Shown here in pieces: positions 5,304 to 61,481 of a stretch of DNA of 64,000 bases. The stretch is from the NCBI GenBank assembly GCA_038133845.1, contig JAYPUA010000015.1, positions 2,268 to 66,267 of the forward strand. The letters run 5' to 3'. Each line of letters opens with the position of its first letter. The stretch's first letter is position 1. Origin of the DNA: Deltaproteobacteria bacterium (GTDB lineage: Bacteria; SAR324; NAC60-12). Under the pieces are notes generated by a model, which saw only the letters and a program-made list of their open reading frames with translations, was not told the DNA's origin and ran no database searches. Position numbers and translations under genes: made by a program.

Positions 5304-6633
5304 GCAGGTCGTCCGGAGTGGTCGCTCCGACGATGGCCCCCAAGGCGTTGAGAGCCGTCCTCAGGTCCACCGCGAGGCACTCCTCTCCAACGTCCTGCAC
5401 CAGTCCATCTCTCACCCACTCCAACGCCTCCAGCGCTCGCTCTGCGGACTGCTGTTGTCGCAGGTTGGTGATCCAGATCTCTTCTCCTGCGGGGACCTCG
5501 CCCATCATGGCCTTGCGTACCAGCAAGGCTTCCAGCAATTCCAGACCCTCTCCTGTACGGGCGGAGAGCAACACCTGCTCTCCGGGAAGCTCCGGATGCA
5601 GCCAATGTGGAGGCTGAGAGCAAAGATCCATCTTGTTCAGCACAGTCACTGTGCGCTCTGGATCAGCCTCCTCGAGCAGCTGAAGACTCTCCGGACCGAG
5701 CGGGCGCGAGGCGTCCAGCAGGATCAGGGTCAGATCTGCCTGCTGCCAGGCGTTGCGGGATCGACGAATTCCTTCCTGCTCCACCACATCTGCAGTGGTC
5801 CGGATCCCTGCGGTGTCAATGATCCGGAAGGCGAGGCCTTTGAGGTGCAGTCTTTCTTCCAGACTGTCTCGCGTGGTCCCCGGAATCTCTGTGACGATCG
5901 CCCGCTGTTCTCGGAGCAGCGCGTTCATCAGCGAGGACTTCCCCACGTTGGGTTCGCCGATCAATGCAAGCGACACACCTTCGCGCATCCGGCGTCCCTG
6001 GTCCGCATGTTCCAACATGTGACGCAGGTCTGCAGAGGCTTGATCGATGCGCTTCAGGCAGTCCTCGTGATGGGTGAAGACGGTCCCTTCTTCCGGAAAC
6101 TCGATGCAGGCCTCCACTAGCGCCGCGACCTGTGCCACTTGCTCCTCGATCGCCTCAATCGCACGAAAGAGCTTGCCACGCAGCTGGCGGACTGCCACCT
6201 GACGTCCGGACTCGGAGCGCGCGTGGATCAGGTCCGAGACCGCCTCCACCTGGGTCAGGTCCAGTCGGCCGTTCAGGAAGGCTCTCCGGGTAAACTCTCC
6301 TGGCTCCGCGAGCCGGGCTCCGTTTTCCAAAACCATCCGGACCATGGCTTCCAGCGTCAGCGGGCTGCCGTGGCCTTGAATCTCTACAACCGTCTCCGCC
6401 GTGTAGGAGCGGGGGGCGCGCATCACTGCCACCAGGACCTCATCCAAAGGCTCCCCCGCTTTACTCATGATCCAGCCATGACTCAGCCGATGAGACGGCA
6501 CCCGATGCAGATCGGCTCCCTGAAAGTGTGTGGCGACACACTCCACGGCGCGGGGACCGCTGATGCGAAGGACTCCAATTCCGGATGGCTGCGGAGCCGT
6601 CGCGATGGCGACGATGGTATCGTCGAGGTGCAT
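5266..6633 (-). CDS. mnmE: tRNA modification GTPase MnmE
   Basis: DTIVAIATA, PRSYTAE, GEFTRRAFLNGRLDLTQVEAV, GEPNVGKSS, GTTRD, DTAG, NKMD and C-terminal FCIGK. Confidence 0.97.
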   Translation of the reverse strand: MHLDDTIVAIATAPQPSGIGVLRISGPRAVECVATHFQGADLHRVPSHRLSHGWIMSKAGEPLDEVLVAVMRAPRSYTAETVVEIQGHGSPLTLEAMVRMVLENGARLAEPGEFTRRAFLNGRLDLTQVEAVSDLIHARSESGRQVAVRQLRGKLFRAIEAIEEQVAQVAALVEACIEFPEEGTVFTHHEDCLKRIDQASADLRHMLEHADQGRRMREGVSLALIGEPNVGKSSLMNALLREQRAIVTEIPGTTRDSLEERLHLKGLAFRIIDTAGIRTTADVVEQEGIRRSRNAWQQADLTLILLDASRPLGPESLQLLEEADPERTVTVLNKMDLCSQPPHWLHPELPGEQVLLSARTGEGLELLEALLVRKAMMGEVPAGEEIWITNLRQQQSAERALEALEWVRDGLVQDVGEECLAVDLRTALNALGAIVGATTPDDLLGKIFAEFCIGK

Positions 6634-8096
6634 TACATCAGCGAGTGGACGTGTCTCACCGGAATGGAAGCAGCCTGCACATCCAGCAGCACCCGTAGGG
6701 CATTCTCCCGGATGCGATGGCTGTGGGCCAACAAGGCCATGCTCGCCTCGGTCACAATCTGGCGCCGGGTAAAGTCTGCCAGCTCCTTGGCCAGATCCAC
6801 GTCTCGGACAATTGATTCGGCGCTGCCGACGCTTTCCTGAGTCAGCCGCAAGACCGAATCGTGGTGGTCCAGAGAACGCTGTACCGACCCCAGATATCCG
6901 CGCACCGAAAGGAGCTGCTCCGTTGCACCATCAACCATCCGGACGGCATCGGCAGCCGACTGAGGTGAATCAAAATTGATGTCAGCCAGGCTATTGAACC
7001 CGCTGTTGTTCGGAACCCCTCGTCCCAACGCAGAGGAGTGGATGTTGGCCAGCGTGATCGGCATCTGCTGCCCAGCCTCCGTTCCAATCTGGAAGCGCGG
7101 TGCGTTCTGACGTACCGTGATCGAGCCGACACTTCCGGTCGAACTGCCCAAATAGGCGACCTGCAGGCCACTGGTGAACTCGTTGGAGGCCTTTCCAGTC
7201 AGGTAGGCTCCGTTCCCCATCGCCGGTTCTTCGTTGATGGAGCCCGCGATGTCAGTTCCAAAGTACAGCTCCGGTTCATTGGCCGAACTGGTCAGCACCC
7301 CGTCCTTGGACGTTGTGATCATGAACCCCTTGGCCAGTCCGTAGTCCTTGTGCTCAATCCGGATGTCCTCGTCATCATGCGTGATGGCGAGATTCATGTT
7401 TGCGTCCAGCACTGCCTGCGCGAGCCTGGTGTAGAGGCCTTCGGCACTGCTGAGCGGGTTGGCATGCACCGTCACTGCTCGCCCATCCTCCTCTTCGAGC
7501 ACAATTGTCAGTCCGGAGGCGTCATCATCATCCATGCTGCCTTCAAACACGGCACGTCGAGGCAACCGGGTAACCTCCACCGAGTAACCGTTGACCGGCG
7601 AACTCAGTGTCTCGGCTCCAGAGCGGATGAACACCAGCTCCGAGTTGTTGCTCGTTCCGACCGATCCCTGGCTTCCATCCAGCAGGTTCTTCCGACCAAA
7701 CTGGGTATTCCGTGAGAGGCGGTCGATGCCGTCAAGTGCCGTCTTCAATTCACTTTGAAAACCGGCGACGGTTGCCAGATCGTAGGGATCTGTATTTGCG
7801 GCGGCAAGGGCTGTCTGGCGAAGTCCCATGAGCAGTCGGGTCGCTACATTGATCGCATCGTCTGCCGTCTGGACGATGGAAAGCGAGAGTGCCGTATTCT
7901 CCAGAGCCTGTTCCACACTGGCCAACTGGGCCCGTAGTTGCTCCGACAGGATCAGGCTGGCCGGACCATCCGCAGCCCGGGTGAGTTTGCTTCCTGATGC
8001 CAGGCGTTCCAGAGAACGCGCCAGAGCGTTGTGGTTGACCGCAAGGTAATGAAGCGGATCCGGAGTCAGGCCGTCATTGCGTATTCCCAGAATCAT
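6633..8096 (-). CDS. Divergent long flagellin-like protein (487 aa)
   Basis: SLERLASGSKLTRAADGPASL, NTQFGRKNLLDGS, FQIG and IVRDVDLAKELADF; degenerate termini and a C-terminal extension. Confidence 0.85.
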   Translation of the reverse strand: MILGIRNDGLTPDPLHYLAVNHNALARSLERLASGSKLTRAADGPASLILSEQLRAQLASVEQALENTALSLSIVQTADDAINVATRLLMGLRQTALAAANTDPYDLATVAGFQSELKTALDGIDRLSRNTQFGRKNLLDGSQGSVGTSNNSELVFIRSGAETLSSPVNGYSVEVTRLPRRAVFEGSMDDDDASGLTIVLEEEDGRAVTVHANPLSSAEGLYTRLAQAVLDANMNLAITHDDEDIRIEHKDYGLAKGFMITTSKDGVLTSSANEPELYFGTDIAGSINEEPAMGNGAYLTGKASNEFTSGLQVAYLGSSTGSVGSITVRQNAPRFQIGTEAGQQMPITLANIHSSALGRGVPNNSGFNSLADINFDSPQSAADAVRMVDGATEQLLSVRGYLGSVQRSLDHHDSVLRLTQESVGSAESIVRDVDLAKELADFTRRQIVTEASMALLAHSHRIRENALRVLLDVQAASIPVRHVHSLM

Positions 8097-8189: not shown

Positions 8190-9101
8190 TCAGGCGTTGA
8201 TCAAGCGCATCACGTTTTGTGGCATCACGTTGGCTTGAGCCAACTGAGCCATGGCGGACTGCGTCATGATCTGGTTCCGGGTGAACGTGGCCATCTCGGA
8301 GGCCATGTCCGTATCCCGGATCACCGACTCGGCTGCGGTCAAGTTCTCCTGAGCGACACGCAGGCTGGTCAGGTTGCTCTCCAGAGTGTTTTTCTGGAAG
8401 GCACCCAGCTCCCCACGGATGGTGGCGATCTGCTGAATCGCTGCGTCCACCATGCCGATGGAATCCTGAGCCCCGCTAGTCGATGTCACGTCGATGTCTG
8501 CCAAGGAGGCGAAGCCACTTCCGTTGCTCACCGACTCTACGGTCTTGCCCACCATCCGGCCGTTTTCACGCTGAATCGTGACGTTGAAGCCCAGATTCTG
8601 GGAAGCGACGCTGGGCAGTTCCACCGAGGTGGTCTGTCCGGCGTTTGCTCCAACCTGGAAGCTCAGGGTGGAGTTCTCTCCATTGAGCAGCTTCTTGCGG
8701 GCAAACTGCGTGTTGTCAGCAATCCGGTCGATGGCCATCAGGGCGTTCTCGATCTCTTGCTGGGAAGCCTCACGCATGGCCTCATCGTTGGTTCCTTCGT
8801 TGGAAGCGGCGATGGCCTGCTGGCGGATGTCGACGAGCAATCGACCCACTTCGTTCAGAGCGCCTTCTGCGGTCTGGACCATGGTGACGGCCGCTTCGTT
8901 GTTGCGAGTTGCCTGCTCCAACCCGCTGACCTGAGCCCGCATGTACTCCGAGATCACCAGGCTGGCAGGGCCATCTGCACCCCGGTTGATCTTCAGACCT
9001 GAAGACAAGCGCTCCAGGCTCTTGCCCATAGCTTCGGAGTTTTGGGTAAGGTTGCGGTGAGCAATGTTGGCACCGACGTTGTTGTTGATGCGAAGAGTCA
9101 T
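8190..9101 (-). CDS. fliC: Short flagellin (303 aa)
   Basis: LRINNN, SLERLSSGLKINRGADGPA, FQVGAN, RGELGAFQ, ESVIRDTDMASEM, AQLAQAN. Confidence 0.95.
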   Translation of the reverse strand: MTLRINNNVGANIAHRNLTQNSEAMGKSLERLSSGLKINRGADGPASLVISEYMRAQVSGLEQATRNNEAAVTMVQTAEGALNEVGRLLVDIRQQAIAASNEGTNDEAMREASQQEIENALMAIDRIADNTQFARKKLLNGENSTLSFQVGANAGQTTSVELPSVASQNLGFNVTIQRENGRMVGKTVESVSNGSGFASLADIDVTSTSGAQDSIGMVDAAIQQIATIRGELGAFQKNTLESNLTSLRVAQENLTAAESVIRDTDMASEMATFTRNQIMTQSAMAQLAQANVMPQNVMRLINA

Positions 9102-11722: not shown

Positions 11723-12613
11723 TTAGCCGTTGATCAGCCGAAGCACATTTTGCGGGTTCATGTTCGCCTGGGCCAACTGAGCCGTTGCCGACTGGGTCAT
11801 GATCTGGTTGCGGGTGAACGTCGCCATCTCCGCAGCCATGTCCGCATCGCGGATGACCGACTCGGAAGCCTGCATGTTCTCCTGAGCAATGCGCAGGCTG
11901 TTCAGGTTGCTCTCCAAGGTGTTCTTCTGGAAGGCACCCAAACGACCTCGGGTGGAGGCCACCTGCTCAATCGCCGCATCCACCAGGTTGATGGTGTCCT
12001 GTGCCCCCAGCGTGGTGGTCACGTCCACGTCCGAGAGCGAGGCAAAACCGCTCCCGTTAGCCACAGCATTCTTGGCTCCGGTGGCCGGATCAACATCGAA
12101 TCCCAACTGGTTGGTTGCCATGTTGGGGACGTCGATGGTCACGGTCTGTCCGGAGTTGGCACCGACCTGAAAGGTCAGGGTCGGGTTGCTTCCGTCCAGG
12201 ATGTTCTTGCGGCCGAACTGGGTATCGCGAGAGATGCGGTCAATGGACTGCAGCGCGTTTTCGATCTCCTGCTGAGAGGCCTCTCGCATCGCCGGATCGT
12301 TGGTTCCTTCGTTGGCAGCGGCAACCGCTTGCTGTCGAACTGAAACCAGAAGTTTGCCCACCTCATCCAGTGCACCTTCTGCGGTCTGGACCATGTTGAC
12401 GGCGGTCTCGTTGTTGCGAGTTGCTTGCTCCAGGCCGTTGACCTGAGCCCGCATGTACTCGGAGATCACCAGAGCGGCAGGTCCATCTGCACCACGATTG
12501 ATCTTCATTCCGGAAGACAGGCGCTCCAGGCTCTTGCCCAAGGCTTCATTGTTGCCCACGAGGTTGCGGTGGGCGTTCATGGCACTGATGTTGTTGTTGA
12601 TTCGAAGAGACAT
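11723..12613 (-). CDS. fliC: Short flagellin (296 aa), close paralog of 8190-9101
   Basis: SLRINNN, SLERLSSGMKINRGADGPA, FQVGAN, RGRLGAFQKNTLESN, ESVIRDADMAAEM. Confidence 0.95.
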   Translation of the reverse strand: MSLRINNNISAMNAHRNLVGNNEALGKSLERLSSGMKINRGADGPAALVISEYMRAQVNGLEQATRNNETAVNMVQTAEGALDEVGKLLVSVRQQAVAAANEGTNDPAMREASQQEIENALQSIDRISRDTQFGRKNILDGSNPTLTFQVGANSGQTVTIDVPNMATNQLGFDVDPATGAKNAVANGSGFASLSDVDVTTTLGAQDTINLVDAAIEQVASTRGRLGAFQKNTLESNLNSLRIAQENMQASESVIRDADMAAEMATFTRNQIMTQSATAQLAQANMNPQNVLRLING

Positions 12614-24710: not shown

Positions 24711-24777
24711 AAGCCTCTGAAAAAATTGGCTCTCTTCATTTGCGTCGTGCGGACGCAAAGGGAGCACTCAGAGGCTT
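24711..24777. other. Long imperfect hairpin in the flagellin-fliD intergenic region
   Basis: AAGCCTCTGA/TCAGAGGCTT outer stem, GCTC/GAGC middle, TTTGCGTC/GACGCAAA inner stem. Confidence 0.5.
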
Positions 24778-24824
24778 CAAAAAACGTTCCACCGCTTCCG
24801 CCTCAGCGAGGCGTTTACTCAGTC

Positions 24825-26582
24825 CTACTGTCCGACGTTCAGGAGTTGCAGGACGGAGCGAGGAACCTGATTTGCCTGAGCGAGCATCGCGGTGCCGGAG
24901 GAGAGCAGGATCTGATTCTTGACCAGGTTGCTCATCTCTTCGGCCATGTCCGTGTCGGCCAGTTGCGACTCGGAGGCAGTCAGGTTCTCCTGAGCAACCC
25001 GGAGGTTGTTCAGGTTGGTTTCCAGGGCATTCTTCTGGAAGGATCCCAGGCGTCCACGCAGCGACGAGACCTCCTCGATGGCCTGATCGACCACGAGCAG
25101 CGCGTCCTGAGCCAGGTCGGCTCCCCGGACATCGATGTCTGCCAAGCTGCGGAATCCGCTCTCGTTCTCCAGATTGTTTGCCAGAAATTCGGGGTTGATG
25201 CTGCGGACCGAGATCTTGCTCTGGTGTCCTTGATTGGGGCCAATCTGAAAGGCCAGAGCATTCTGGGTCACGTGAACGTAGCCATCGACAGGTTCGCCCA
25301 CCAGCAGGTCGTTCGAGTTTTCACGACGGAAGAGTCCGGCTACACGGTTGTCCAAGCGATTGAACACTTCGTAGATCACATCATCCGTGGTGTTGGAGTA
25401 GCGAACGGTCACACCTTCTGCGACCGATCCGGGCGCTCCGGTGAGGAACTGCCCGTCTCCAATGGCCGGCTCGCCGGAGCCAAACTCCGGACTGCCGCCA
25501 ATCGAGCCCTCGACGTCTCGTCCGGGAACGGAGAACGTGGCCTCGTTTGCCGGAGTGTCGTCCTTGAAGAAATCGTCCAAGGTGGTCGAGACCGTGAAGT
25601 TTGGGTCGCTGCCGAACTCCCGGTGTCGGATCACGATCACCTCCTCGTCTCCCACCAGGTCTCTCACCTCTCCCGGATACTCGGCGATCTTGCTCAGAGC
25701 ATCATTCAGGGTGTCGAAGCTGGAGAGGAAGGCTCCCAGTTGCTCTGCCGGGCGGTAGACGAACACATCCAGTTCCATCCCGGCCTCGTCGACCTGCCGC
25801 TGCATCTCTGATGCGATCAGCTGCTGCACTGCTCGCTCGGCATTGGCGATCGCCTCCGGGCTGCCATCTCGTGTCGCCGCGCTGGCAATCTTCTCGATCT
25901 GAGAGTTGAGCTCCTTGTTCTTTCCCAAGTCCACCCCGACTGTTCGGCCACCTTCGTTGATCACAAAGGAGACCACCTTGCTCGGATCGGAGGACACCAC
26001 GTCTTCCAAGCGCAAGGCTCGGGTTCCAACGAGGAAGGAGCGAGTGGCCACCTGAGTGATATTGACCTTGTAGCCTTCTGCCGGAGAGGACTTGCTGGTT
26101 TCAGTGGCACTGATGAAGTTCAGCCCGTCTCCAACGGCAACTCCGTCGGAGGCATTGCTGCCGTCCAGCAGGGTCTGGGTGCCAAACTGAGTGTTGCGGG
26201 CAATGTTGCGAACCGTTGAGAGCAGGTTCTCTACCTCAATCTGATCGGCCTCCAGCATCTTCTCATCGTTTCCGCCTTCGTTCGCCGCGTGTACGGCCAG
26301 TTGGCGCAGATTGATCAGAATGCTGCTGACCTCGCTCAATGCGCTTTCTGTGGTCTGGACCATCGAAACAGACGTCTCCGAGTTCCGGATTGCCTGTCCC
26401 AAGGACTCGATCTGGGCCTTCATCTGCTCGGAAATCACCAGAGAAGCCGGTCCATCCGCAGCGCGATTGAGACGTCTTCCAGACGAGAGTCGCTCCAGAT
26501 TCGTGGTCAGCGCCTGCTCTGTGCGATTCAATTGCCTCAGAGCGTTCAGGGCTGCTATGTTGGAGTTGACTCGAAGTGCCAT
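24825..26582 (-). CDS. fliC: Long flagellin (585 aa)
   Basis: MALRVNSNIAALNA, LERLSSGRRLNRAADGPA, FQIGPN, RGRLGSFQ, ESQLADTDMAEEM, MLAQANQ. Confidence 0.95.
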   Translation of the reverse strand: MALRVNSNIAALNALRQLNRTEQALTTNLERLSSGRRLNRAADGPASLVISEQMKAQIESLGQAIRNSETSVSMVQTTESALSEVSSILINLRQLAVHAANEGGNDEKMLEADQIEVENLLSTVRNIARNTQFGTQTLLDGSNASDGVAVGDGLNFISATETSKSSPAEGYKVNITQVATRSFLVGTRALRLEDVVSSDPSKVVSFVINEGGRTVGVDLGKNKELNSQIEKIASAATRDGSPEAIANAERAVQQLIASEMQRQVDEAGMELDVFVYRPAEQLGAFLSSFDTLNDALSKIAEYPGEVRDLVGDEEVIVIRHREFGSDPNFTVSTTLDDFFKDDTPANEATFSVPGRDVEGSIGGSPEFGSGEPAIGDGQFLTGAPGSVAEGVTVRYSNTTDDVIYEVFNRLDNRVAGLFRRENSNDLLVGEPVDGYVHVTQNALAFQIGPNQGHQSKISVRSINPEFLANNLENESGFRSLADIDVRGADLAQDALLVVDQAIEEVSSLRGRLGSFQKNALETNLNNLRVAQENLTASESQLADTDMAEEMSNLVKNQILLSSGTAMLAQANQVPRSVLQLLNVGQ

Positions 26583-26625: not shown

Positions 26626-26652
26626 TTATCGGCAGCGTGGAAAATTTCTTTA
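26626..26652 (-). promoter_or_regulatory. Sigma28 (FliA) promoter, proximal
   Basis: TAAA-N15-GCCGATAA, an exact consensus match 44 nt upstream of the flagellin ATG. Confidence 0.85.
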
Positions 26653-26742: not shown

Positions 26743-26769
26743 TTATCGACCGCTCTCCAGATTTCTTTA
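26743..26769 (-). promoter_or_regulatory. Sigma28 (FliA) promoter, distal
   Basis: TAAA-N15-GTCGATAA, one mismatch to consensus. Confidence 0.7.
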
Positions 26770-26783
26770 GCAAAAAATACGTC

Positions 26784-57367: not shown

Positions 57368-57491
57368 GAATGCCTGGAGAACGAAGGGACCTCCGGGACG
57401 GAAGCCGGAGGTCTCGGGGATTTCTGATCAGCTGGGTGGAGGAACGAGGCCCAGCACTTCAGTGTGGAGGATGCCCGAAAGGAGCGCAAGC

Positions 57492-58886: not shown

Positions 58887-59258
58887 TCAGCACTGGCGTT
58901 CCAGAGCACGGTTCCGGTAGGCCTTTTCGCGGTTCACGTCCTTTTGGGTAGGCAGACGCGGGGGAGGCGTGCCCTGAAGCATCTGGCGGAGGCGATGCTG
59001 CTGCCCATAGGAGAGCGGGATTCCCTTGCGCTTCCGGTTCCACGCGTCCAGTTCCATCATCCGTTGATGCTCTCCCGTGAACTGAGGCCGCTCCAGTTCC
59101 TCTTCCACTTCACGTTGCACCTTGTTCCGGCAGTTGGTCTTGAAGTGCTCTTTGAGAAACAGCCGATCCGTCGCATACTCCTGCGCTTGGGTCCACCCCG
59201 CAGAGAGGGCTCCTGCAAGGAGCAGCAAGGGAAGGAGCAGCAAGGGTCTGAAAAGCAT
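58887..59258 (-). CDS. Secreted hypothetical protein (123 aa)
   Basis: Signal peptide MLFRPLLLLPLLLLAGALSAGWTQA. The longer 220-aa ORF extension is judged spurious. Confidence 0.7.
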   Translation of the reverse strand: MLFRPLLLLPLLLLAGALSAGWTQAQEYATDRLFLKEHFKTNCRNKVQREVEEELERPQFTGEHQRMMELDAWNRKRKGIPLSYGQQHRLRQMLQGTPPPRLPTQKDVNREKAYRNRALERQC

Positions 59259-59272
59259 TTTTCGATCGGGGC

Positions 59273-59300
59273 TCAAGTTTTTGCCAGAAGTTGCCGATAA
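59273..59300 (+). promoter_or_regulatory. Sigma28-type promoter
   Basis: TCAAG-N15-GCCGATAA, with a perfect -10 box. Confidence 0.7.
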
Positions 59301-59304
59301 CGCA

Positions 59305-59825
59305 GTTAAGGATTGCCTTACCTTCAGGAAGGCAAGCAAATTTAACGCCCGAAATCCGTGCCGGCTCTCTTTGGGGAAATCAAGCTTTCCCAGAGAACGG
59401 CTGGATTCCAGTGTGTTTGTTCTTGGAAATCCCGAACCGAGTTCCTCTAGGCTTGCGCAGAGCCGCAGGAGAAACAAGTCGAACCACAGGGAACCGTCTC
59501 TTTCAGGACACCTCTCTGCGGGCCGGATGGGTTTGTTCTGGCTTCGCACAGTCCTCTTGACCTTGGCCAGGCTCCCTTGTGTCGATTTGCCTGAACGCCG
59601 GAGGGGTGGTTTCTCCCCTTCCCAAGTTCAGCCCAAGGCAAGAACTTGAGCGGGGAGCATTGCCCCCGCAGGTCAGATGTTGAGACCTGCAAGCAGACTG
59701 GGTCGAGGAACGTTACCCAACTGCAAGAAGGCTGGGTCGAGGAACGATACCCAACTGCAAGCACTCCTTGGAAAAGGAGAGCGCTGTGTTGTCGGGAATT
59801 CAGGAACCGTATTCTTTTTTTCATC
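59305..59825 (+). ncRNA. Candidate GGA-rich structured RNA (CsrB/RsmZ-like) or long leader
   Basis: Consecutive stem-loops, many AGGA/GGA motifs, no credible same-strand ORF, U-run at 59815-59822. Confidence 0.45.
59687..59762 (+). repeat. Tandem repeat, 2 x 34 nt plus partial third unit
   Basis: CTGCAAGCAGACTGGGTCGAGGAACGTTACCCAA / CTGCAAGAAGGCTGGGTCGAGGAACGATACCCAA, 31/34 identical. Confidence 0.9.
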
Positions 59826-59865
59826 CCCTTTACGGGGTTCATCCTTTAACATGGAGAAGAGCGTC

Positions 59866-60090
59866 ATGACGCCATCGGAACAGAAGATCGAACAGTACCA
59901 TGCGATCGTCGGAGACGATACCAGCTATCGCTTTGAGCACAAGATCGCTCAGGCGGTTCAGGAACTGGCAGAGTCCTTGGAGAACAACTTCATGGACGAT
60001 GAGGCCAAAGTCGACTATGCCACCCACGTGTTCGCAAAAATGCTGGACGATCTCGCAGACTTTCTGGAAAATCCTCGCTTGATCAATTGA
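59866..60090 (+). CDS. Small acidic helical hypothetical protein (74 aa)
   Basis: GGAG RBS, protein-like composition, TGA overlaps the next ATG. Confidence 0.7.
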   Translation: MTPSEQKIEQYHAIVGDDTSYRFEHKIAQAVQELAESLENNFMDDEAKVDYATHVFAKMLDDLADFLENPRLIN

Positions 60091-61481
60091 TGGGAACTCC
60101 TTCGCCCGAGGCTCTTCGGGCGTGGCTGGAGCAACAACGCCTGCGACATGGACTCCAACTGTTTGGAGTCAGCTTCCTCGGAGCCGCCTCCGGGTTGCTG
60201 GTGCTGTTTCTCTGGTCAGACTCTCCGGCTCTGGAGCACTGGTTCCTGGCCAACCTGGCGCTCCTGTTGCTGTGCCTCGCAGGAAGCTGGTCTCTCAGCG
60301 AGCGCTTCTTCTCCTCACGACTCGCCCGGAAACATCCGGAACTTGCCGAGTCCCTGAGAACCCTGCAAGACCTGGAGTCCACTTCGGCCTCAGGGCCGGA
60401 GTTTGTCTTCTTCCGAGAGCAGCACCGGCGTCGGACCGAGCAGAGCCTGCAGGGCCCTGCCTCCGGGTTTCGCTCCTCCTGGAAGGGGCCCTTCGCGCTG
60501 GCGGTGCTGGTGCAGTGCCTGTGGTTCGCGGCGCTCTGGTGGGTGCCCGGAAATCCGGAATTTCTCGCTTGGCGAGACGGACCGCCGGTGAACCTGCAGG
60601 AATCCTATCGCCTCCTCTACCCCTCCTACTTGAACCGAGAGCCCCTGGTCTTGGAGCAGCTTCCGGAACGCCTCTCTCTTCCACAGGGAACCCGGCTGGA
60701 GATTTTGGCCGCGGAAGCCCCGGAAGACCGCAGCCGCTTTGAAATTCCCGGTCGGAAGCCGGAGCCTCTGCGCTGGTTTGAACAGCAGGGGCACTGGATG
60801 ACCGCCATCGCCCCGGACCTCTCCGGAATCCTGACCTTGCAGTGGAAACGCCTGCAACTTCCGGTTGAGGTCGTCCCGGATCAGGCGCCGGAGCTGCTGG
60901 TCATCTGGCCCAGCCTGGAGCACATCTTCGACAGTTCTCCCCTGCCTGTGGACCTGAGCACTTCAGACGATCATGCGCTGCTCAACATCATCCTTCACTA
61001 TCAGGTGGAGTTGACCGGAGATCCCTACCGAGAGATCATCCAAGCCTTCGAGACCCCTGTCCGGGAGCATCAGGAACTGTACATCTGGGAGCTCTCCGGG
61101 ACGCCGCTCAAGGCCGGAGACAACGTCACCGCCTGGATCGAGGTCAGCGACCGGGACACGCTGAACGGGCCGCACATTGCGCGATCCCAGGAGTTTCGCT
61201 TTCAGGTGGAGAGCCTCAAGGAGTTCCACGAGCGGTTGCTCGCCAAGTTCTGGAAGGTCGACGAGGAGCTGCGCACACTCCTGGGATATCTGGACCAAAA
61301 GGTCCTTCCAGAGACCGCCCTCCAGGAAGAGGCGATCGACGCGCTGCTTGAAGAGATCCAGCGGGACATGGTGTGGGACCTGCTGCTCTCAGATGCCCTC
61401 AAGAACCTGACCCGGGAGATGCGCTCCAAGCTTGAATACTACCGAGAGCAGCGACAGCTTTCCGGCTCGCGTCCCAGCTAG
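60087..61481 (+). CDS. Membrane-anchored protein, DUF4175-like
   Basis: N-terminal TM pair; VVPDQAP, SDDHAL and W.EVSDRDTLNGP...S.EF motifs. Confidence 0.65.
   Translation: MMGTPSPEALRAWLEQQRLRHGLQLFGVSFLGAASGLLVLFLWSDSPALEHWFLANLALLLLCLAGSWSLSERFFSSRLARKHPELAESLRTLQDLESTSASGPEFVFFREQHRRRTEQSLQGPASGFRSSWKGPFALAVLVQCLWFAALWWVPGNPEFLAWRDGPPVNLQESYRLLYPSYLNREPLVLEQLPERLSLPQGTRLEILAAEAPEDRSRFEIPGRKPEPLRWFEQQGHWMTAIAPDLSGILTLQWKRLQLPVEVVPDQAPELLVIWPSLEHIFDSSPLPVDLSTSDDHALLNIILHYQVELTGDPYREIIQAFETPVREHQELYIWELSGTPLKAGDNVTAWIEVSDRDTLNGPHIARSQEFRFQVESLKEFHERLLAKFWKVDEELRTLLGYLDQKVLPETALQEEAIDALLEEIQRDMVWDLLLSDALKNLTREMRSKLEYYREQRQLSGSRPS

Follow-up and report, generated by a model that had tools for sequence, protein, structure and literature searches.

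The stretch of DNA analysed here, called the window in the following, comprises 64,000 nucleotides (64 kb) of contig JAYPUA010000015.1 (positions 2,268 to 66,267 of the forward strand, assembly GCA_038133845.1) from a bacterium of the SAR324 cluster. Within it, a divergent intergenic region of 607 bp (59259-59865) separates the gene for a secreted protein of 123 aa on the minus strand (58887-59258) from two genes on the plus strand, an open reading frame (ORF) of 74 aa (59866-60090) and the gene for a membrane protein of 464 aa (60087-61481), the start of which overlaps the stop of the 74-aa ORF. At 59273-59300 the intergenic region carries a sigma-28 (FliA)-type promoter on the plus strand, and the 565 nt that lie between this promoter and the 74-aa ORF (59301-59865) contain no conserved ORF and belong to no Rfam family. 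A preliminary description of this DNA had taken the promoter and the sequence behind it for the gene of a flagellar-class small RNA (sRNA) of about 520 nt that acts as a CsrA sponge, and had offered a long leader of the 74-aa ORF as the fallback. The fallback turned out to be the best-supported reading, with the promoter kept upstream of the orthologous gene and no terminator found in between: the late-flagellar promoter at 59273-59300 probably transcribes the 74-aa/464-aa operon through a 565-nt leader (5' untranslated region, UTR) and not a separate RNA gene.

The promoter is composed of the -35 element TCAAGTTT, a 12-nt spacer and the -10 element GCCGATAA, which is equivalent to the TCAAG-N15-GCCGATAA seen in the preliminary description. 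It matches the FliA consensus at 8/8 positions of the -10 element and at 7/8 positions of the -35 element (TCAAGTTT as compared to TAAAGTTT). A relaxed sigma-28 pattern, T[AC]AA-N14-16-NCCGA[TA]AN, scanned on both strands of the window (128 kb), matched at two places, namely at 59273-59300 and at a promoter on the minus strand (TAAAGAAA-N11-GCCGATAA, 26626-26652) that ends 43 nt upstream of the flagellin gene 24825-26582. Judged as a sequence match, the site at 59273-59300 is far beyond chance, and transcription would be expected to start near 59307-59309. In comparison with the FliA class-3 promoters (TAAA-N15-GCCGATAA), the site has the same perfect -10 element, the near-perfect -35 element and a spacer within one base, and the identical -10 element stands ahead of the flagellin gene in the window; it differs in that most SAR324 copies carry C for A at the second -35 position and in that the genes driven here are not known flagellar genes. 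The promoter thus appears to be an ordinary member of the FliA class.

Orthologous loci (identified below by L-numbers) were retrieved via both downstream proteins, while a metagenome scan contributed only three further loci. Upstream of the orthologous 74-aa gene, about 14 SAR324 loci carry a sigma-28-like site that follows (C/T)T(C/A)AAGTT...(G/T)CCGAT, in all of them oriented toward that gene and with no conserved ORF in between, so that the promoter called in the preliminary description is backed both by the flagellin promoter and by conservation in the orthologues. The distance from the promoter to the ATG, by contrast, varies widely: it is short in L021 (85 nt), in L008, where two copies are present (94 and 168 nt), and in L006 (about 134 nt), intermediate in L011 (299 nt), L016/17/22 (about 345 nt) and L001/L004 (464-469 nt), and long in L019/L020 (483-484 nt), the window (565 nt), L005 (581 nt) and L025 (641 nt). 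Since the site is kept at variable distance but always faces the 74-aa gene, and since in L021, L008 and L006 it lies only 85-170 nt from the ORF, its conserved job would be the expression of the 74-aa/464-aa pair. The long leader, in turn, appears to be a variable, lineage-specific feature.

The distribution of conservation along the leader follows the same lines. A comparison of L001 with L004 gave 94% identity over the first 83 transcribed nt, 44% over the middle stretch of about 310 nt and 83% over the last 72 nt, where the 4-fold degenerate sites of the flanking genes, taken as the neutral reference, are 50-52% identical. Between the window and the near-identical locus L027 there are 17 differences, every one of them in the leader body, which corresponds to a divergence of 3.0% over the whole leader as opposed to 1.5% at codon position 3. 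Likewise, blastn of the window leader against the relatives finds only the promoter and about 50 nt beyond it and no similarity in the body, while the alignment also gives a conserved block at the ribosome-binding site. Because the body is no better conserved than 4-fold sites and holds all of the L027 differences, the hairpin-rich and GGA-rich stretch that had attracted attention is the least constrained part of the leader. The leader body (300-450 nt; 59353-59794 in the window, where most of the listed stems and GGA motifs lie) appears to evolve like neutral, unconstrained DNA, and selection appears to act only on the two leader ends, of which the 5' island measures about 50-85 nt and the 3' island about 70 nt. 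Five ORFs can be drawn mechanically on the same strand in the region. Two of them (59646-59849 and 59677-60090) were rejected as genes, because both span a 34-nt repeat whose variation in copy number would shift their frame; the remaining ones, and with them a conserved small leader ORF, were rejected because the sequence there is not conserved in relatives. The earlier statement that no credible same-strand ORF precedes the 74-aa gene therefore holds.

In the window, the 5' island (59301-59352) contains a hairpin, in which TTGCCT (59313) pairs with AGGCAA (59330) and CAGGA is located at the loop, followed by the box CAAGCAAATTT (59333-59343) and by AACGCC. The local fold of the island scores z = -2.8. 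The hairpin stem differs among three lineages, being TTGCCT/AGGCAA in the window, TTCTTCA-GGAGT-TGAAGAA in L001 and CTCCC-ATGGAC-GGGAG in L016, with GGA in the loop each time, although a covariation statistic would need more than these three lineages. Downstream of the hairpin stands the near-invariant box (A)CAAGCAA(G/A)TTT. The possibility that the CAAGTTT-like box belongs to a second sigma-28 promoter was discarded by eye, as there is no -10 element at the correct spacing. Long-range pairing of the 5' box with downstream sequence was also discarded, as the partners differ per lineage and are not conserved; predicted duplexes of the 5' island with the ORF gave no further information. The 3' island (59795-59865) covers the translation-initiation region and contains a U-run (59815-59821), a hairpin CCCC(59825)-TTTAC-GGGG(59837) and the sequence CATCCTTTAAC, which leads straight into ATGGAG with the Shine-Dalgarno (SD) motif GGAG at 59854-59857. 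The distant loci L005, L008 and L025 share the motif CATC..TTTAAC(T/A)TGGAG, and variants of it occur in L019 and L020.

Taken together, a transcript initiated from about 59307 at the FliA-type promoter (59273-59300) would read through the 565-nt leader into a bicistronic message for the 74-aa (59866-60090) and 464-aa (60087-61481) proteins. The U-run and nearby sequence of the 3' island could sequester the SD motif, and the 5' and 3' islands together may exert translational control, while the body between them would drift in sequence and in length, including the 34-nt repeat at 1-4 copies. Several points weigh against this picture. The transcription start, the 3' end and the read-through are all inferred, and an additional, unrecognised promoter may lie closer to the ORF. 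No fliA gene was seen within the 64-kb window; in the window and the fetched loci, tblastn with a FliA query found only sigma-70-family (RpoD-like) genes, in L001, L004 and L008, and a FlgM query found no match. At 565 nt the leader is of unusual length, and several lineages likewise exceed 450 nt, which hints that the length, or something inside, may matter. Finally, a neutral spacer does not account for the seven-T run that three GC-rich lineages have at a similar position.

The proposal of a stand-alone non-coding RNA, driven by sigma-28 and about 520 nt long, which would end at the U-run and sequester CsrA by means of many GGA hairpins so as to complement or replace FliW, draws on the genuine promoter, on the 17-18 GGA motifs and the hairpins, on folding that is better than that of shuffled sequences (plus strand z = -3.1) and on a tandemly duplicated GGA-loop hairpin, a type of unit able to multiply binding sites; in addition, the coexistence of RNA antagonists with FliW has been posed as a question (PMC7652899). 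All of the stem pairs listed in the preliminary description are present at plausible positions, and its count of at least 15 GGA including four CAGGA was confirmed, with 17 GGA and four CAGGA in 59273-59825. The region is not GGA-rich, however, in the sense the proposal relied on, namely a density above the genome background, and the preliminary description had itself named this outcome as refuting. Its 3.2 GGA per 100 nt compare with 2.5-3.0 across the window, and on the plus strand of the same 64 kb, windows of 553 nt hold 13.6 GGA on average (sd 4.3) and 25% of them hold at least 17. Against dinucleotide shuffles the region scores z = 1.8, which is ordinary, since GGA exceeds the dinucleotide expectation throughout the genome (the tiles average z = 1.06); the raw enrichment over shuffles was discounted because coding tiles of the same genome are biased likewise. 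The sole outstanding tetramer is AGGA, with 8 occurrences as compared to a tile mean of 2.9 (sd 1.9), a count of at least 8 being reached by 0.9% of the tiles. The remark that several GGA lie in loops was generous: although a simple hairpin scan places 6/18 GGA in loops (z = 2.1), only 3/19 are mostly unpaired in the thermodynamic ensemble, and the mean unpaired probability is 0.20 for GGA versus 0.35 for all positions. Moreover, the antisense strand folds even better than the sense strand (z = -4.1). The U-run given as 59815-59822 is present, but is made up of seven T (59815-59821) and not eight, and the 74-aa ORF begins 44 nt after it. An intrinsic terminator at this place was rejected, as no stem abuts the U-run and the local fold is predicted to pair it with the SD region; the terminator scan found no terminator-like stem there and, as its sole weak match, 59400-59412, where 2.1 matches are expected by chance. 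Rfam gave no Csr/Rsm match, with nothing at the gathering score and, at E up to 10, three chance matches only, unrelated to Csr/Rsm. With the body evolving neutrally and the promoter-to-ORF distances in L021, L008 and L006 leaving no room for a sponge, a CsrA-sponge sRNA is very improbable. The known sponges CsrB/CsrC and RsmX/Y/Z are separate sRNAs that end in a terminator, carry densely spaced single-stranded GGA and are in most cases controlled by a system of the BarA/UvrY type (Pourciau et al. 2020, PMC7652899). The leader shares with them repeated GGA-loop hairpins, including a tandemly duplicated unit, and its non-coding nature, but differs in every testable defining feature, that is, in density (at background), in single-stranded GGA (mostly paired), in the missing terminator and in family similarity (none in Rfam), and it runs directly into an ORF. 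A refinement of the leader reading, rather than an alternative to it, would be that CsrA targets the leader and is perhaps titrated by it to a modest extent, as in the case of the Campylobacter jejuni flaA mRNA, the leader of which both binds and titrates CsrA (PMC4894983). CsrA would bind at the 5' GGA-loop hairpin, at the repeat hairpins and at the GGA-containing SD motif, so that translation of the operon would be tied to flagellar assembly. This idea fits the GGA-loop hairpin that three lineages keep at about +20 to +45 despite different stems, the SD motif of L001/L004 in a hairpin loop (AACGT-TAAGGA-GCGTT), the L011 sequence ACAAGGATGT, which is close to the SELEX consensus RUACARGGAUGU (PMC7652899), the AGGA excess of the window and the density of 4.1-5.7 GGA per 100 nt reached in L016/17/22 (5.7 in L017). 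Leaders of the hag/flaA type combine a GGA site over the SD motif with a further GGA hairpin 10-63 nt upstream of it. In the window, the candidate sites would be the SD sequence AUGGAG (59852-59857) and CAGGAAC (59801-59807), which lies about 50 nt upstream and is predicted to be paired. Across 12 leaders, GGA is the most enriched trinucleotide in short hairpin loops (33 observed versus 13 expected), 26% of GGA lying in loops as compared to 16.9% of all trinucleotides (conditional test, p = 0.006), an excess that is absent on the antisense strand; in control intergenic regions the respective values are 19.8% and 16.1%. The p value, however, fails correction over 64 trinucleotides unless GGA was chosen in advance, and GGA also comes first among the trinucleotides when coding tiles are compared with dinucleotide shuffles, so that part of the signal is compositional. 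The background density and the predominantly paired state of GGA in the window speak against CsrA binding as they do against a sponge, and GGA-loop hairpins are lacking both in the short leaders of L006, L008 and L021 and in the 581-nt leader of L005. Furthermore, tblastn with FliW and with the CsrA proteins of Escherichia coli and Bacillus subtilis found nothing in the 64-kb window or in loci L001-L022. Control of the leader by CsrA is accordingly rather unlikely on present evidence. The 34-nt repeat bears on this question from both sides. It consists in the window of two tandem units on the plus strand (59687-59754) with the stem CTGGGT/ACCCAG (units (C)TGGGT/ACCCA(A)) and the loop CGAGGAACGAT, following the pattern CGAGGAACGWT. 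One copy is present in L026, two in the window, L027 and L028 and four in L030 and L031, while the unit is absent from L001/L004; the variants come from independent assemblies with leaders that are otherwise more than 97% identical. A GGA-loop hairpin at 1 to 4 copies would suit a CsrA-binding leader. Alternatively, the units could represent a small dispersed palindromic element, either REP-like or a protein-binding DNA palindrome, that was expanded by slippage and has no function in the leader at the RNA level. The variable copy number among near-identical strains, the absence from L001/L004 and a stem mismatch in L027 that is present, uncompensated, in both copies agree with such an element, and the mismatch argues against a CsrA-binding hairpin. 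The same holds for a related palindrome, GCTGGGT-GGAGGAACGAG-GCCCAGC, close to the repeat hairpin, which lies in an unrelated intergenic region (57430-57454, plus strand) between a GlnA-like and an FAD-oxidoreductase gene, both on the minus strand, and is kept in L026 (615-639). Yet just two sites occur within 64 kb, the loop is better conserved than the stem, the opposite of what a purely structural palindrome would usually show, and it contains an AGGAA motif as expected of CsrA-type sites, which makes a dispersed element without leader function quite improbable. Improbable, too, is a dual-function RNA that would serve as the 74-aa/464-aa message and at the same time bind CsrA through its GGA-loop hairpins and thereby tune late-flagellar translation, with the 34-nt module at 1-4 copies in co-occurring strains.

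A different explanation concerns the 5' island, which might be conserved mainly at the DNA level, as a sigma-54 promoter for the divergent 123-aa gene. As the start codon of this gene lies 14 nt from the -35 element of the sigma-28 promoter, its own promoter has to be located in the leader DNA, and no sigma-70-like promoter was found for it on the minus strand. Read on that strand, the conserved 5' box becomes a sigma-54-like -24/-12 box, GGGCGT-TAAAT-TTGCT (59335-59350), that faces the 123-aa gene at about 75-85 nt from its start codon and keeps an exact and invariant GG-N10-GC spacing in three lineages, namely in the window, in L001/L004 (AGGCGTTAAACTTGCT) and in L016/17/22 (CGGCTCCAAACTTGCT). 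The gene pair is conserved as well, with the divergent neighbour present in the window, L001/4, L016/17/22 and L006 and weak matches in L011 and L025. Sigma-54 governs middle flagellar genes in many polar flagellates (see also PMC4894983), which would lend such an arrangement some plausibility. The long intergenic region could then be understood as a shared divergent control region with overlapping sigma-54 and sigma-28 promoters, perhaps including activator sites; if the box is real, the two promoters overlap back to back. On the other hand, neither activator-binding sites nor conserved upstream sequences were found, the intergenic regions of L006 and L011 have no such box although the divergent gene is present, and L025 has only a distant match with 3 mismatches about 690 nt from the divergent gene. 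At the other flagellin genes of the window, no clear sigma-54 promoter was seen that could have served as a positive control, and the G-U pairs of the L001 hairpin favour an RNA made from the plus strand. Against TGGCAC-N5-TTGCW the box has 3 mismatches (2 in L016/17/22), and chance matches of this quality occur 0.58 times per kb per strand; because of this imperfect match, a sigma-54 promoter is a possible but somewhat unlikely main cause of the conservation.

With respect to known systems, the closest functional analogue of a CsrA-binding version of the leader would be the C. jejuni flaA mRNA, a sigma-28-driven, flagellin-encoding message with a 45-nt leader that is repressed by CsrA and also titrates it, and that has two defined ANGGA stem-loops backed by compensatory changes (Dugar et al. 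2016, PMC4894983). Both are sigma-28-driven mRNAs whose leaders contain GGA-loop hairpins and whose ribosome-binding sites include a GGA, but the leader described here is mostly unconstrained over its 565 nt, precedes an uncharacterised 74-aa protein and occurs where CsrA was not found in the window or in L001-L022. In the hag leader of B. subtilis, CsrA-FliW partner switching operates with csrA and fliW demonstrably present (PMC7652899). It resembles the present case in its sigma-28-family (SigD) promoter and has one CsrA site over the SD motif and a further site in an upstream hairpin, but is short and leads into a flagellin gene, and both csrA and fliW are present. Sigma-28-dependent, UTR-derived sRNAs have been described in E. 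coli (Melamed et al. 2023, PMC10578931), and a FliA-dependent sRNA in C. jejuni (PMC11187230); these are short, base-pairing RNAs with mapped ends. While they too are non-coding products of late flagellar promoters and in part UTR-derived, the leader at 59301-59865 gives no sign of processing or of a base-pairing seed.

The two proteins of the operon are poorly characterised. The true start of the 74-aa ORF is 59866, as every orthologue opens with MT(P/Q)... and GGAG stands at 59854-59857. Orthologues with 58-86% identity were identified, the promoter-bearing SAR324 loci as a set span 43-86% identity of the protein, and the whole family amounts to only 22 clusters within 1.84 billion representatives. 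The protein is acidic and is predicted to form three helices (pLDDT 78), but no family or fold match was obtained with Pfam, NCBIfam, PDB sequence profiles or Foldseek. Between L001 (9776-10000) and L004 (7803-8027), 27/30 4-fold sites of the 74-aa ORF are identical (90%) as opposed to about 50% in the flanking genes, which suggests that either the nucleotide sequence of the ORF itself is constrained or the ORF was recently exchanged. The 464-aa protein has N-terminal helices and a beta-rich middle part; it can be linked to DUF4175 only via distant orthologues in L008 and L005 (P0004), and its AlphaFold model (pLDDT 61.7) falls below usable confidence for a structure search. The sigma-28 promoter in front of the 74-aa/464-aa pair predicts that its role is late-flagellar or linked to motility. 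In several relatives, cheR and large hybrid sensor kinase/response-regulator genes adjoin the locus (L001 1-5584, L004 2-3925, L006 479-6138), a chemotaxis-type neighbourhood that is missing immediately upstream in the window. On the other side of the intergenic region, the part of the 123-aa gene that codes for the signal peptide contains a perfect 15-nt tandem duplication (AAGGAGCAGCAAGGG twice, 59217-59246), which encodes an LLLLP repeat.

Elsewhere, the window also contains four flagellin-family genes, fliD and fliS. The flagellin-family genes are all on the minus strand (6633-8096, 8190-9101, 11723-12613 and 24825-26582), and only one of the four has a recognisable sigma-28 promoter. About 120 nt upstream of this promoter, at about 26745-26772 on the minus strand, lies a near-copy, GCTAAAGAAATCTGGAGAGCGGTCGATAA, and together with TAAAGAAA-N11-GCCGATAA it may constitute tandem late promoters of the gene 24825-26582. 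The leader of 8190-9101 presents CAGGAGGAA within a GAGAT/ATCTC hairpin together with an AGAGGAA SD motif, in an arrangement that resembles CsrA-controlled flagellin leaders. At 24768-24800 on the minus strand, directly ahead of the listed fliD start, the sequence TGGAAC-GTTTT-TTGAA resembles a sigma-54 promoter but has GA for GC at -12; the fliD start codon may be located further downstream than listed.

The finding therefore consists chiefly of a well-supported promoter and a long leader and not of a new class of regulatory RNA. Should the leader bind CsrA, this would be relevant to the question of whether RNA antagonists and FliW ever act together (PMC7652899), and the dual-function reading, if true, would mean an RNA antagonist in a lineage expected to use FliW, with its capacity tuned by copy number at the level of strains. 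For the SAR324 bacteria, an abundant uncultured marine phylum, the analysis provides a concrete sigma-28 motif with which the regulon can be annotated, and it adds to the predicted late-flagellar (sigma-28) regulon a gene pair that is uncharacterised and restricted to SAR324.

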